Virus genome (UHGV): UHGV-0361135
Strand: one strand, 5' to 3'
DNA from: a virus
DNA: 15,908 nt
This document shows, piece after piece, positions 2-4,226 of this stretch (positions within the stretch are counted from its first letter, which is position 1; the number at the start of each line of letters is the position of its first letter). The notes under the pieces are model-generated. The model was not told the origin of the DNA. It searched no databases and was given only the letters and a program-made list of their open reading frames with translations. The translations under genes and the position numbers were made by a program.

Positions 2-583
2 CACCTTATCAGAACCGCTTATGAAATTAACGAAGAGCCGACCGCCTATGGCGATCACGGTATTCGTATTTATGGCATCTGGTCACCCATTTCAGAGGGC
101 AAGATCTGCACTCATGCAGTGAAGTGGAAAATGGTTCGTAAGGCCGTTGACGTTCAGGAGGCGGTAGCCGACCAGGGCGCTTGCGCCCCTTGGACTCGTG
201 GCAATAACTGTCCCCTTGCTGAAAATTTGAACCAACAGGAGAAAGATAAATCAGCTGATGGGGGCACCAGAACGGACATTACCCGCATGGATGACAAGCA
301 GTTGCACGATTACCTGCACAGTATGAGCAAAAAAGAGCGCCGGGAACTGGCAGCAAGGTTACGCCTGGTTAAACCGAAACGGCGTAAAGACTACAAACAG
401 CGAATTACAGACCATCAGCGACTGCAGCTCGTCTATGAGCTGAAGTCCAGAGGATTTGATGGTAGCGAGAAAGAGGTCGATTTACTCCTTCGCGGCGGCA
501 GTATTCCGTCAGGAGCAGGCCTGCGTATCTTCTATCGGAACCAGCGTCTGCAGGAGGATGATAAATGGCGGAACCTGTATTAA
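2..583 (+). CDS. 3' end of a long ORF that enters the window already open (5' partial); probably the C-terminus of the P2-family replication initiation protein (gpA-like), judged by synteny
   Basis: Frame 2 is open from the first base of the window to TAA at 581-583. The position immediately upstream of the tum/DinI-like module and the cargo island matches the P2/186 gene order. I do not recognise the protein sequence itself. Confidence 0.5.
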
Positions 584-675
584 TTACGCTGGTTAACAAT
601 TCGTGCTCTTAATAATACCAGGCATATCAGGCTGATGAGCGTAAAAAAACGTTTTACATCAGTAAGATTATTATA

Positions 676-695
676 TACTGTAAATATAAACAGTG
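676..695. promoter_or_regulatory. LexA operator (SOS box) overlapping a putative sigma70 promoter for the downstream small-ORF/DinI-like operon
   Basis: TACTGTAAATATAAACAGTG has CTGT at 678-681, an 8-nt AT-rich spacer and ACAG at 690-693, matching the gammaproteobacterial LexA consensus CTGT-N8-ACAG. A TTTACA -35-like hexamer lies at 653-658 and TATACT at 674-679. The first downstream start codon is 42 nt away. Confidence 0.75.
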
Positions 696-736
696 GTTAT
701 GTGTACAGTATTGCTTGTGGTGTCATAGGAGGAAAA

Positions 737-925
737 ATGCAGGACTATTTTTTGGAGTCTTTGAAGCTCCAGCGCATTGATTTTTTTCTTAAGCTTGTAG
801 CGGCTAGTGAGTGTAGTGATGAAGAGAAGGGGCTGGCCCTGCAGTGGGTTTCTGAACTGACAGATGAACTCATGGCAAAAATCAGAACCCACGAATACAA
901 CCGCTCAATGGATGTCATCAGTTGA
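737..925 (+). CDS. Small hypothetical protein (62 aa), first gene of the SOS-regulated operon; possible antirepressor-like partner of the DinI-like protein
   Basis: ATG at 737 is preceded by a strong RBS, AGGAGG at 727-732. The longer ORF in the track (from 635) lacks an RBS and would overlap the LexA box. No recognisable homology. Confidence 0.6.
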   Translation: MQDYFLESLKLQRIDFFLKLVAASECSDEEKGLALQWVSELTDELMAKIRTHEYNRSMDVIS

Positions 926-935
926 GGTGACTTTT

Positions 936-1169
936 ATGCGCATTGAAATAATGATCGATAAAGAGCAGAAAATTAGCCAGTCTACCCTGGACGCCCTTGA
1001 ATCCGAGCTTTACCGCAATCTGCGCCCCCTGTATCCCAAAGCGGTAATTCGTATCCGTAAAGGTAGCTCTAATGGTGTGGAACTGACCGGACTGCAACTG
1101 GACGAAGAAAGAAAACAAGTGATGAAAATTATGCAGAAGGTGTGGGAAGACGACAGCTGGCTGCATTAA
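936..1169 (+). CDS. DinI-family protein (77 aa), resembling the DinI-like C-terminal domain of phage 186 Tum antirepressor
   Basis: MRIEIMIDK...LDALESEL...SSNGVELTG...KQVMKIMQKVWEDDSWL aligns well with E. coli DinI as I recall it (MRIEVTIAK...IDALAGEL...ILQETWESADDWF). A GAGGTGA RBS precedes the ATG at 936. Confidence 0.88.
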   Translation: MRIEIMIDKEQKISQSTLDALESELYRNLRPLYPKAVIRIRKGSSNGVELTGLQLDEERKQVMKIMQKVWEDDSWLH

Positions 1170-1435: not shown

Positions 1436-1966
1436 TTAACCTTGTATAGTTATTTGAATATTTTCTTCATTAACACCAAAGTATAGGGCTAGCCCTGCTT
1501 TTGCCTCCTGAAGTGTTAACGGCTTAACTACATTTTCTTCTTCTTCTTCGTACTCATCACCCGCTTGATCGACAATCGAATTAGTCGGGGTTAATTTGGG
1601 AAGAGCTTTAAATTCCAACTTGTCAGCCTCAATGCCAATGTCTTTGAGGTTGCGATAAGAAACGGGATTCCGATTGCCATCCCATTGTCCTGGGATGTCA
1701 ATTTCAGCATAAGAATTGATGTTTATGATCCAGCGTTTAGGGTTTTCTGGAGCCCTGCTTACTCCCGAGATTCGACCGATCATAAAAGCATGATGATGTT
1801 TTGCTTCTTGTGATCCCCAGTCCTTTCTCGAATTTTGTACACAAACTAAATATTCGTGCTTAGCTGCATGGCTGGCGTCAAGTCTCCATGCTTGGCTTCC
1901 CCCTGTGTTCAAAATCTCTGTTAAACCACGAGCAGTAAGTACAGTAATACAGTTGGTAGTAGCCAT
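1436..1966 (-). CDS. Hypothetical 176-aa protein in AT-rich cargo island 1; function unknown, candidate accessory or anti-phage gene
   Basis: Intact 531-nt ORF on the minus strand with a purine-rich stretch (GACGGGG) upstream of the ATG at 1966. Composition differs from the flanking phage genes. It has an acidic patch (DEYEEEEEN) and a His-rich segment (KHHHAF). I recognise no family. Confidence 0.7.
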   Translation of the reverse strand: MATTNCITVLTARGLTEILNTGGSQAWRLDASHAAKHEYLVCVQNSRKDWGSQEAKHHHAFMIGRISGVSRAPENPKRWIININSYAEIDIPGQWDGNRNPVSYRNLKDIGIEADKLEFKALPKLTPTNSIVDQAGDEYEEEEENVVKPLTLQEAKAGLALYFGVNEENIQITIQG

Positions 1967-2283
1967 TGAATTGTGACCCCGTCTTTTTTAGAGAAATACT
2001 GTTGATGAATGTAGTTTACGTATTTTTTTATGGGGTAGTCAAGTTAGTATTATGCTCATTATTGGCTGTTTGTTGAGTGTTGTGAGTTGGTACTTTGTGT
2101 AGTATCTCTTGATTTATGAGGATTAAATCTAAGTTATGACAAAGGGAGGCAGGGGGAACGCGCAGCGCAAGGTGGACAGGAGGCCATAAGGACTCACTTG
2201 AAGTAAGAAAAGATCGATAAAGCAACAATGCATGTCTATGCCGCATGAATTCGCATGATCGTTTGAGGATCGTTTTAGTTGAG

Positions 2284-2311
2284 GCCCGCCAGGAATGGCG
2301 GGCTTTTGTTT
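2284..2311 (+). terminator. Rho-independent terminator-like hairpin on the plus strand with no annotated upstream plus-strand gene
   Basis: GCCCGCC (2284-2290), loop AGGAAT, GGCGGGC (2297-2303), followed by TTTTGTTT (2304-2311). Confidence 0.55.
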
Positions 2312-2481
2312 ATGTCATGCAAGTGCATGAAAACCACTACATAAAGCGGGCAGGCGTGGCGGGGATACGAGCGCGCGCTCATGGTTGAATTAATGAAATT
2401 ATGGTGTTAAATAGGCTAGCTTTTTAAGTCGTGAATATTCAATTTTTCAACTCATTTTTTTCATAGGGAGGAGTAATTGAC

Positions 2482-3180
2482 ATGGTTATGTTAGTGGATG
2501 ACTGTCCACGATGTGGATCACAAAAAATAGCGTTTGATGTTAATGGGCTGAATTGCACTAGGGTTTACAATGCATTGGGCGGGGGTAAAACATACGAGTA
2601 CGAGGTCTATTGTGTTTGCCGAGAGTGTCATAAAACGACAATGTTTCTTTGCAGACCTTTAACGAAAAATAAAACTTTAGATGGCTATAATTGGGAAAGT
2701 GGAATATTCGGCTTAAAGGAAGTTGCAGAGGTTGTTAGGCCTATATCACCGGCAGACTTAGCAGTAGAGGAGCCACCAGAGTTCTTACCTGAGCATATCA
2801 ATAGTGCATATGAGGAAGGGGCGAAATGTTTGGCTATAGGTTGTTATAATGCAGCAGCAACCATGTTTAGGCTTTGCCTTGATTATGCCACAAAAGGACT
2901 TCTTCCTGATGGGGAGCAAGGGCCTGCGCAAAAAATAAGGAGAAGCCTAGGGTTAAGAATGGAGTGGTTATTTGATAATCATCTACTGCCTGAAGCTTTA
3001 AGGGAACTAGCTGAATGCGTTAAAGATGACGGAAATGATGGAGCGCATGAAGGTATTTTGGATAAAGCTGCTGCTGAGGATCTTGAAGATTTTACCTATC
3101 TTTTTTTAGAACGGCTTTACACTGAACCTCAACGCCTTATCGAAGCCAAGACAAGGCGTGAACAAAGAAGAAACAAATAA
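2482..3180 (+). CDS. Zinc-ribbon plus DUF4145-like domain protein (232 aa); candidate single-gene defence or abortive-infection protein in cargo island 1
   Basis: GGGAGGAG RBS at 2466-2473, 8 nt before the ATG at 2482. The N-terminus has CxxC...CxxC (CPRCG...CRECH). The C-terminal region (AYEEGAKCLAIGCYNAAATMFRLCLDYATK...LRELAECVKDDGNDGAHEG) resembles the DUF4145 helical domain pattern as I recall it. Lower GC than the adjacent portal gene. Confidence 0.75.
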   Translation: MVMLVDDCPRCGSQKIAFDVNGLNCTRVYNALGGGKTYEYEVYCVCRECHKTTMFLCRPLTKNKTLDGYNWESGIFGLKEVAEVVRPISPADLAVEEPPEFLPEHINSAYEEGAKCLAIGCYNAAATMFRLCLDYATKGLLPDGEQGPAQKIRRSLGLRMEWLFDNHLLPEALRELAECVKDDGNDGAHEGILDKAAAEDLEDFTYLFLERLYTEPQRLIEAKTRREQRRNK

Positions 3181-3188
3181 GTTCGGAA

Positions 3189-4226
3189 TTATTCTTCTGA
3201 AAGAATATAGGGCGTAAATTTAATCACTTCTTCGCCCAGCCAGTCGTTCAGCTCTTGTAGCCTTTTTTGCAAGGGCGTTAATTCATTACGTACAAATACG
3301 CGACTGGCCTTCTCCACATCCCCAAATCCCCCAACATTATTAGGCATTATCCCCATCATTTGTGGCGGTACACGGTGCGCAGCCATCATGTCATCGCGGC
3401 TGACATTTTTGATATTCAGAAACTCATCCTTCGCCGCGACTTCTGACAGAGGAATGATCTGAAGGCCGTCCTTTTTGCCGTTCGGCGAGTACATAAACAG
3501 GTTACGGAAATTGCCAGGTCCTTTGGCGCTTTTCATCGCATTACGGAGGTTGTTTACATCCTCCTGGTTCTGCGCGGCGTCGGTCATGTACATGATGAAG
3601 CCTGCGTGGCTGCCGTTAATGTAATACTTGCGGCGGAACAGCGTGGCGGACTCGTTGAGTAGGGCTGACGGAATGGCAGAAAGATAACCGGGCAGGCCGT
3701 AGATCTCCTGGTTGATATCCGGTTCCATCAGGTGAAAAATGCTGCCTTTCGTGAACTGATACGGTTGCGTGGTCATGCCGTATTGCACAAACCAGTAGGT
3801 ATCCAGGTCTAATCCGCGTCGGGTGTATTTTGCCAGGGCAGGTTCAAGGGCGATAACTTCACCGAAGCGGTTCGTGCGTTTCTCCAGGTAGGCGTTACCA
3901 AAAACCAGATAGTCCTGCACAAAACGCGAAAAAGCCTGCTGGCTGAGCAGCGGGTGAGGGATGTAGGTGCTGGTCAGAATGTTGCACTTTACTGCAATCG
4001 GGGAACTATGATGCACGGCAGCGCGGAAGGTGCGCGCCAGTCCGTCAAAGCTGACGGGCGGCTCATACCAGCGGTCCATCTGTACGCATTCCACATAATC
4101 CAGCAGTTCTCGGCGGTCCAGAACAGGAACGGGATCGCCGAAGCTGAATGCTTCGGCTGTAGTTTGACTTTTAAGCTGGATCTGTTTCGTCGCCGCAGCG
4201 CGGTTCTTCTTACTCTTTCCCATCAA
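3189..4226 (-). CDS. Q: Capsid portal protein (P2 gpQ homolog)
   Basis: 345-aa ORF with a P2 Q-like N-terminus (MMGKSKKNRAAATKQ...), located immediately downstream of P on the minus strand with a 4-nt ATGA start/stop overlap. Canonical P2 Q-P arrangement. Confidence 0.92.
   Translation of the reverse strand: MMGKSKKNRAAATKQIQLKSQTTAEAFSFGDPVPVLDRRELLDYVECVQMDRWYEPPVSFDGLARTFRAAVHHSSPIAVKCNILTSTYIPHPLLSQQAFSRFVQDYLVFGNAYLEKRTNRFGEVIALEPALAKYTRRGLDLDTYWFVQYGMTTQPYQFTKGSIFHLMEPDINQEIYGLPGYLSAIPSALLNESATLFRRKYYINGSHAGFIMYMTDAAQNQEDVNNLRNAMKSAKGPGNFRNLFMYSPNGKKDGLQIIPLSEVAAKDEFLNIKNVSRDDMMAAHRVPPQMMGIMPNNVGGFGDVEKASRVFVRNELTPLQKRLQELNDWLGEEVIKFTPYILSEE

Follow-up and report, generated by a model that had tools for sequence, protein, structure and literature searches.

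The window, which is the whole stretch of DNA analysed here (15,908 nucleotides of the viral genome UHGV-0361135), contains the region known as the gpA-gpQ hotspot of P2-like phages (Rousset 2022, PMC9122126; Vassallo 2022, PMC9519451). The late genes Q, P, O and N follow from position 3189. From the end of gpA to the portal gene Q, the following features were identified:

119..583, C-terminus of gpA
within 635..925, small ORF of phrog_698, its true start probably being M35 of the listed ORF
864..1169, DinI-like gene (Pfam DinI, E 1.4e-22)
1436..1966, minus strand, ORF of 176 amino acids (aa), cargo on the gpA side of cos (phrog_37247, E 6e-94)
2281..2306, plus strand, terminator-like GC-rich hairpin with a T-run (11-bp stem, 7 GC pairs)
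2353..2371, no strand assigned, P2-type cos core GGCGTGGCGGGGATACGAG, from the alignment with P2 cosL
2388..2465, plus strand, AT-rich leader specific to the DUF4145 cargo module, presumed promoter site
2466..2473, plus strand, Shine-Dalgarno sequence GGGAGGAG, read from the sequence, 8 nt 5' of the ATG
2482..3180, plus strand, DUF4145 gene, coding sequence for 232 aa with a zinc ribbon and a DUF4145/HEPN domain
3189..4226, minus strand, P2-type portal gene Q (phrog_68, E 3e-177), a convergent neighbour and not a component

The ORF call on the window placed the DUF4145 gene, with an ATG start, at 2482..3180. Its stop codon has 3180 as its last base and that of the convergent portal gene begins at 3189, which leaves a gap of 8 bp between the DUF4145 gene and Q. 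A preliminary description had reported a 232-aa gene with its own strong ribosome binding site, located between cos and the Q stop with an 8-bp gap, at a position which is non-coding in P2. All of these points were confirmed. In P2, cosL (1-19) and Q (187-1221) are separated by 167 bp of non-coding DNA containing only the terminator tQ. The alignment with P2 cosL spans about 35 bases, and the homology to P2 ends at about 2387; the DUF4145 gene starts about 110 bp past the cos core. In the record of Escherichia phage Cartapus, bases 1-59, which correspond to about 2320-2378 of the window, are annotated as the cos site.

The 232-aa protein is identical in sequence to WP_000245245.1, to CARTA_1 and to LF82_788. 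CARTA_1 is gene 1 of Cartapus, and Cartapus is prophage 4 of the adherent-invasive E. coli strain LF82. Identity of the DUF4145 gene with CARTA_1 extends from 2400 onward, and the leader at 2388..2465 is 100% identical in LF82/Cartapus. The GC content of the DUF4145 gene and its leader is 0.40-0.42, compared to 0.53-0.60 in the structural genes. The hairpin at 2281..2306, which is conserved in Cartapus as well, at the right end of its record, ends the rightward transcription from the gpA and DinI side ahead of cos, and the DUF4145 gene downstream of it therefore needs its own promoter. A scan of the plus strand upstream of the gene for the sigma-70 consensus gave no promoter match. Between the DUF4145 gene and Q, no canonical terminator was identified, only weak hairpins with z about -2.

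Transcription of the gene in a lysogen can be followed in a published re-analysis of LF82 RNA-seq data covering five conditions (PMC9928086, S1 Table), in which values are given as log2(fpkm+5) with a floor of 2.32. CARTA_1 (LF82_788) was at 4.65 and 4.71 in LB stationary phase, at 7.0-7.6 in B1 and B6, and at 9.2-9.6 in MB1 and MB6, the MB6 sample representing bacteria inside macrophages 6 h post-infection (PMC9928086). For CARTA_2, the adjacent portal gene, the corresponding values were 2.9-3.0, 2.5-2.8 and 2.45-3.07 (PMC9928086). CARTA_1 was thus well above the portal gene in all five conditions, and since it is up while the portal gene is silent, its transcription in the lysogen appears to be independent of the late operon. 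This is what a defence gene requires. In LB, CARTA_1 was under the 5-fold cut-off used for morons in that study, and it is absent from the moron list (PMC9928086). The Cartapus hotspot genes CARTA_45 (DinI), CARTA_46 and CARTA_47 and also CARTA_1 rose strongly in the macrophage samples compared to LB, and the Cartapus structural genes were at background in the macrophage samples.

The 232-aa protein is built from two domains, which are located on the gene as follows:

2482..2766, plus strand, N-terminal beta-rich zinc-ribbon domain and linker, aa 1-95 (strands of the AlphaFold2 model)
2503-2505, 2512-2514, 2617-2619 and 2626-2628, plus strand, codons of the Cys4 ligands
2767..3126, plus strand, helical HEPN (DUF4145) domain, aa 96-215
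3022..3048, plus strand, active-site motif K181-D-D-G-N185-D-G-A-H189, family pattern [R/K]xxGNxxxH
3127..3177, plus strand, end of the long C-terminal helix (aa 195-231, 37 residues) with the basic tail RREQRRNK (AlphaFold2 model)

The N-terminal CxxC...CxxC zinc ribbon and the C-terminal DUF4145 domain proposed in the preliminary description were both borne out. The Cys4 ligands are C8, C11, C46 and C49; at least 283 of 292 family sequences share them, as do 79-80 of the 80 cluster representatives. The Pfam DUF4145 profile matched aa 114-203 with 30.3 bits (E 4.5e-7), above its gathering cut-off of 23.1 bits. A search of NCBIfam identified no model for the protein, and a search of BFVD gave two unnamed full-length matches without interpretive value. 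DUF4145 has been assigned to the HEPN superfamily, and fusions of zinc ribbons to DUF4145 have already been recorded (Anantharaman 2013, PMC3710099). Both hallmarks of the superfamily are present in the 232-aa protein, namely the helical core and a motif of the Rx4-6H type, here in the DUF4145 variant [R/K]xxGNxxxH. Among the 80 cluster representatives, the histidine of this motif is kept in 78, the asparagine in 75 and the glycine in 75. At its first position, 51 of them have R, 23 have K and 4 have Q, and L and T also occur. R130 is invariant (80 of 80), and R225, R226 and R229 of the basic tail are invariant or nearly so in the family. Four further cysteines lie in the HEPN domain (C116, C121, C132 and C179, encoded at 2827-2829, 2842-2844, 2875-2877 and 3016-3018). 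They are kept in 86-96% of the 292 sequences and are exchanged for A, S, V or T in relatives; judged by this pattern, they look more like buried small residues than like a second metal site.

An AlphaFold2 model of the 232-aa protein, calculated with an alignment of the 80 cluster representatives (50% identity), had a mean pLDDT of 94.7 and a pTM of 0.80; a single-sequence run reached a pLDDT of 39 and was discarded. In the model, the strands of the N-terminal domain comprise residues 3-6, 16-30, 36-46, 52-59 and 82-88. Structure comparison of the model identified the C-terminal domain as a HEPN fold, with listed values of 11.8 for AF0298, 10.0 for TT1696, 9.3 for the HEPN domain of sacsin, 9.2 for AbiA, 9.1 for Csm6 and 8.8 for the HEPN toxin 7ae2, and Foldseek weakly agreed with this fold. 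The two halves of the protein differ in their variability, with a column entropy of 2.30 bits for aa 1-60, 2.94 bits for aa 61-95 and 1.53 bits for the HEPN part. Variability in the family is thus highest in the zinc-ribbon half with the linker, while the HEPN half is conserved.

This architecture is known from RAZR, the ring-activated zinc-finger RNase formerly named PD-T7-4, from E. coli UMB1727 (RRL46918.1; PDB 9Y9C and 9Y6U; PMC9519451; PMC13017515). PD-T7-4 was obtained by functional selection in E. coli and was described as 'Zn finger-HEPN' (Vassallo 2022, PMC9519451). RAZR consists of an N-terminal Cys4 zinc-finger domain and a DUF4145/HEPN RNase with the catalytic residues R146 and H154, and exchange of R146 for alanine abolished defence (PMC13017515). 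The protein is non-toxic alone, and is activated by the assembly of 24 copies around phage proteins that form rings, the triggers being the portals of T7, T3 and SECphi18 or an Erf-like recombinase, with a ring about 170 A across (PMC13017515). The outcome is non-specific cleavage of ssRNA and abortive infection, and the zinc-finger domain was described as the most variable part and the determinant of specificity (PMC13017515).

In a PADLOC search, PD-T7-4 was the only family matched by the 232-aa protein, with E 1.2e-6 and 26.1 bits against a profile for which no curated cut-off is given. The alignment places residues 36-200 on positions 39-165 of the 211 of the profile, which is about 60% of its length. 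PD-T7-4 was also the sole PADLOC match in 8 of 8 further relatives, including phage homologs from Burkholderia, Gordonia and an Stx phage, and in several relatives the aligned part begins at the first CxxC and extends through the whole HEPN domain. In a set of 48 family members, 46 matched PD-T7-4 (best E 8.2e-10), with weak matches of 16-31 bits. In the coordinates of the profile, H189 falls at about position 154 and K181 at about position 146. The catalytic histidine of RAZR is therefore present as H189, while the position of the catalytic arginine is occupied by K181 with identical spacing.

Both RAZR and the 232-aa protein are one-protein systems of similar size (about 220 aa for RAZR), and both combine an N-terminal Cys4 zinc ribbon with a C-terminal DUF4145/HEPN domain, the zinc finger being the variable half. 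The basic residue and the histidine have an identical 7-residue spacing (R146...H154 and K181...H189). However, similarity at the profile level is weak (26 bits), a lysine replaces R146, and the zinc-ribbon region is divergent. The location differs as well, since homologues of RAZR were reported to overlap an integrase gene, while the gene in the window lies between cos and Q of a P2-like prophage. RAZR was compared via its profile and its published description, so that the link consists of the profile match, the architecture and the motif. On this basis, the 232-aa protein is most likely a distant relative of RAZR on a separate branch.

A second validated defence protein from E. coli with a zinc finger and a HEPN domain is DS-38 ('HEP2', WP_001313577.1; DefensePredictor, PMC13092281), of which only the HEPN domain aligns with PD-T7-4 according to the authors (PMC13092281). 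DS-38 shares the combination of zinc finger and HEPN domain with the 232-aa protein, but with its 366 aa and its own accession it is a separate protein, and an identity of the two was rejected. In the accessible part of the DefensePredictor supplementary tables, DS list included, the signature GNDGAHEG was not found (PMC13092281). Other systems with HEPN domains carry different regulatory modules: the MNT antitoxin of HepT/MntA-type toxin-antitoxin pairs and the CARF sensor of the Csm6/Csx1 RNases are both absent from the 232-aa protein, in which the fused zinc ribbon is the regulatory module.

The cargo genes of the gpA-gpQ hotspot, like old and tin of P2, are accessory genes at the same cos-side hotspot which are expressed in the lysogen and exclude other phages (PMC9122126). 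Old and tin differ in being located on the gpA side of cos, while the DUF4145 gene is on the Q side, and the proteins are unrelated. In the available portion of the P2 hotspot arrangement table of Rousset 2022, WP_000245245 is labelled 'DUF4145' with at least 17 occurrences (PMC9122126). The accessible main text of that paper contains no mention of DUF4145 and no sign of WP_000245245 having been tested (PMC9122126). In many P2-like prophages, the phrog_698 ORF and the DinI-like gene recur between gpA and the variable cargo. The 176-aa ORF, which in the window constitutes the cargo on this side, has no match in Pfam, NCBIfam or PADLOC, and is a candidate for a hotspot defence gene in its own right. 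An identical gene adjoins retron St85 in E. coli JNE082640.

The stretch between cos and Q was occupied differently in other genomes. In E. coli JNE082640, the left flank is 99.4% identical up to position 2383 of the window, and is followed by the effector and the reverse transcriptase of retron St85 and then by the portal gene. Other E. coli genomes contain genes annotated as SieB-family, PIN-domain, TIR-domain, TIGR02391-family or STAS-like in the same stretch; an IS1 with a DUF6953 gene was also identified, and in some E. coli genomes the stretch is empty. The DUF4145 gene therefore has the characteristics of hotspot cargo, being located between gpA and gpQ beside cos with an occupancy that varies among related prophages, and the arm from cos to Q behaves as an exchange slot in its own right. 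Among 5426 complete E. coli genomes, none was identified with the pairing of cargo left and right of cos that is present in the window. The left module is matched only up to 2377-2383, and the right module occurs with other left modules, as in LF82, strain 5735 and others. From the absence of the pairing it follows that the two arms of the hotspot are exchanged independently of each other, cos being the breakpoint and thus the boundary for recombination between them. Where E. coli prophages carry other cargo, nucleotide similarity to the 3' end of Q (3189..~3310) in most cases sets in 40-120 nt inside the gene. At the protein level, the ~15 C-terminal residues of the portal are not the same in the prophages carrying the DUF4145 gene and in one carrying a retron. 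Judged by these sequences, the exchanged module appears to extend into the C-terminal tail of the portal protein.

The label 'orphan', which had been attached to the gene in the preliminary description, turned out to be wrong. In a protein database clustered at 90%, 603 relatives were identified with E<=1e-3, and an exhaustive HMMER scan of representatives at 50% identity gave 927 clusters with E<=1e-3, 334 with E<=1e-10 and 137 with E<=1e-30. Among the 5426 complete E. coli genomes the DUF4145 gene is present in 43, in 39 of them with at least 99% identity, compared to about 1290 genomes which match this P2-like region at all. In species-level genomes, full-length relatives of 42-84% identity were found in all classes of Proteobacteria and in Nitrospirota, Omnitrophota, Verrucomicrobiota, Planctomycetota and Acidobacteriota. 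A conserved partner gene was sought in 80 species-level loci, and none was identified. P2-type packaging genes are located near the homolog in 6 of these loci, the other 74 being outside P2-like prophages. Among 133 immediate flanking proteins, no Pfam or PADLOC family occurred in more than three loci; the flanking proteins are a mix of housekeeping functions with a few of defence type (TIR, IrrE/CapP-like, methyltransferases, mad2 and RmrA). The lack of a recurring neighbour family identifies the DUF4145 gene as a stand-alone, horizontally mobile unit. An association of the homologs with defence loci, as envisaged before, held for prophages, in which the hotspot slot is shared with defence systems, but outside phages the neighbourhoods gave no clear signal of defence islands.

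In IMG/VR, 50 of 70 viral contigs with a homolog have a tail-to-tail junction with a P2-type portal gene, and this junction persists at about 50% identity of the DUF4145 protein and 62-68% identity of the portal protein. The remaining 20 contigs represent different phages, with the homolog beside late activators, HNH and terminase genes, integrases or tail genes. In three viral contigs the homolog adjoins an HNH endonuclease and the large terminase, and in four a late transcriptional activator. In Gordonia phage Meyran, a distant homolog at 94-783 is gene 1 and lies between cos and the small terminase, and distant homologs in unrelated phages are likewise located at genome ends or packaging boundaries. 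A homolog of 25% identity, annotated as 'DNA binding protein', was found at 3040-3714 in Shigella phage POCJ13 / Stx phage 75/02. In Stx-converting phages it has a RelE/ParE toxin-antitoxin pair on one side and a Ren-like exclusion gene on the other, and in its motif, R-I-D-A-N-K-A-V-H, an alanine replaces the motif glycine.

Taken together, the DUF4145 gene probably encodes a one-protein anti-phage zinc-finger-HEPN RNase, carried as exchangeable cargo between cos and Q of a P2-like prophage, and we would assign this reading a probability of roughly 0.6. It builds on the observed domains and fold, the conservation of the motif, the pattern of variability, the single-gene status, the slot and the transcription in the lysogen. 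By analogy with RAZR, the protein would be made constitutively from the prophage and would be inactive alone in the lysogen. After infection by a foreign phage, the variable zinc-ribbon domain would bind an assembly made by that phage, and on binding the oligomer would change its arrangement, bringing adjacent HEPN domains together into [K/R]...H active sites. RNA would then be cut non-specifically, translation would halt, and the infected cell would release no phage. The activity as an RNase, the trigger, the oligomerisation and the abortive outcome are in this way predicted from the RAZR model, and activation by ring templating specifically is to be held with less confidence than the defence function as such. 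The zinc-ribbon domain is unlike that of RAZR, so that the set of phages recognised is probably a different one.

The main weakness of this assignment is K181 at the position of RAZR R146. In the family, R and K replace one another frequently, which speaks for a lysine being tolerated, but the residues Q, L and T at this position may leave room for a non-canonical or weakened site. Further points speak against the assignment: the PADLOC match is weak, the protein is missing from the accessible part of the DefensePredictor tables, the neighbours of the homologs outside phages show no clear island signal, and the expression in LB stationary phase did not reach the 5-fold level by which the LF82 study defined morons. 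If K in place of R had weakened or inactivated the HEPN domain, the protein could act as a binder or decoy, for example by sequestering a phage ring protein while RNA remains uncut. Besides the substitutions at this position, the observation that the motif is missing from about 20% of DUF4145 domains (PMC3710099) is in line with such a role. We consider it quite unlikely, because 75-78 of the 80 representatives retain H189, N185 and G184 and all 80 retain R130, as expected for a working active site, and because the repeated exchange of R and K is a conservative change; the conservation of the active-site residues argues against a non-catalytic binder. Unlikely, too, is a HEPN RNase moron which serves the physiology of the lysogen, for example in growth arrest or persistence induced by stress or the host cell. 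The increase of the LF82 transcript from log2 4.7 in LB stationary phase to 9.2-9.6 in the macrophage samples would fit this role, and HEPN RNases are also known as toxins of toxin-antitoxin systems which induce dormancy (PMC3710099). However, the transcripts of CARTA_45 to CARTA_47 increase in these samples too, and the induction may therefore be regional. The slot is otherwise filled by bona fide defence systems, and the nearest characterised relative is a phage-triggered defence protein which is non-toxic alone. No antitoxin-like partner gene is conserved alongside, which argues against a dormancy RNase of the toxin-antitoxin type.

A phage-intrinsic function linked with cos and packaging or with regulation was also considered, since the family carries the PHROGs annotation 'DNA binding protein' (phrog_1305), the gene adjoins cos or packaging genes here, in Meyran as gene 1 and beside HNH and terminase genes in three viral contigs, and the tail-to-tail linkage with Q persists to 50% identity. 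It is nevertheless improbable. The gene is present in only 43 of the about 1290 E. coli genomes matching the P2-like region, it is absent from P2, unrelated cargo substitutes for it in sister prophages, it is transcribed while the packaging genes are silent, and 74 of the 80 species-level loci are not in P2-like prophages. The preliminary description had named a single-gene sensor/effector role or an anti-defence role as plausible. The former is favoured by the HEPN fold, by PD-T7-4/RAZR as the only PADLOC family, by the missing partner and by the slot used for defence. For the latter, a counter-defence protein helping the P2-like phage to beat host immunity, the sole argument is the general fact that accessory loci of phages hold both defence and anti-defence genes. 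It is opposed by the expression in the established lysogen and not just on entry, by the conserved enzymatic HEPN core, by the broad chromosomal spread across phyla outside phages, and by the only similarity to a known system being that to a defence effector, and it is considered very unlikely. The sporadic occupancy of the slot and its replacement by defence systems argue against the packaging or DNA-binding role and the anti-defence role alike.

The hotspot and the presence of the gene there under its DUF name were already known, and for a specialist a probable anti-phage RNase at this site is not surprising. The tail-to-tail linkage with the portal gene might be functional and not an accident of the slot. 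Since proteins of the RAZR type sense portal rings, the 232-aa protein and the resident gpQ could be a co-adapted pair, a speculative idea to which we give little weight. In one form, the prophage could pair a sensor of portal rings with a portal allele which fails to trigger it; in another, the sensor could respond to the resident portal, but not before the late phase of that phage's own lytic cycle, and so shut down competitors such as other P2-like phages or P4 satellites. If true, such a pair would be a built-in discrimination between self and non-self portals. Independent of this idea, the locus raises the questions of how a ring-sensing suicide RNase avoids the portal of the resident phage and how far variants of the zinc ribbon retarget the sensor. 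With a RAZR-like gene beside its own portal gene, a functional prophage offers a natural test case. So far, RAZR is represented by two closely related proteins, and the DUF4145 family would add a large second branch of the same architecture in many phyla. A likely function can thereby be proposed for a gene annotated so far just as encoding a DUF4145 protein, including the one in the Crohn's-associated strain LF82.
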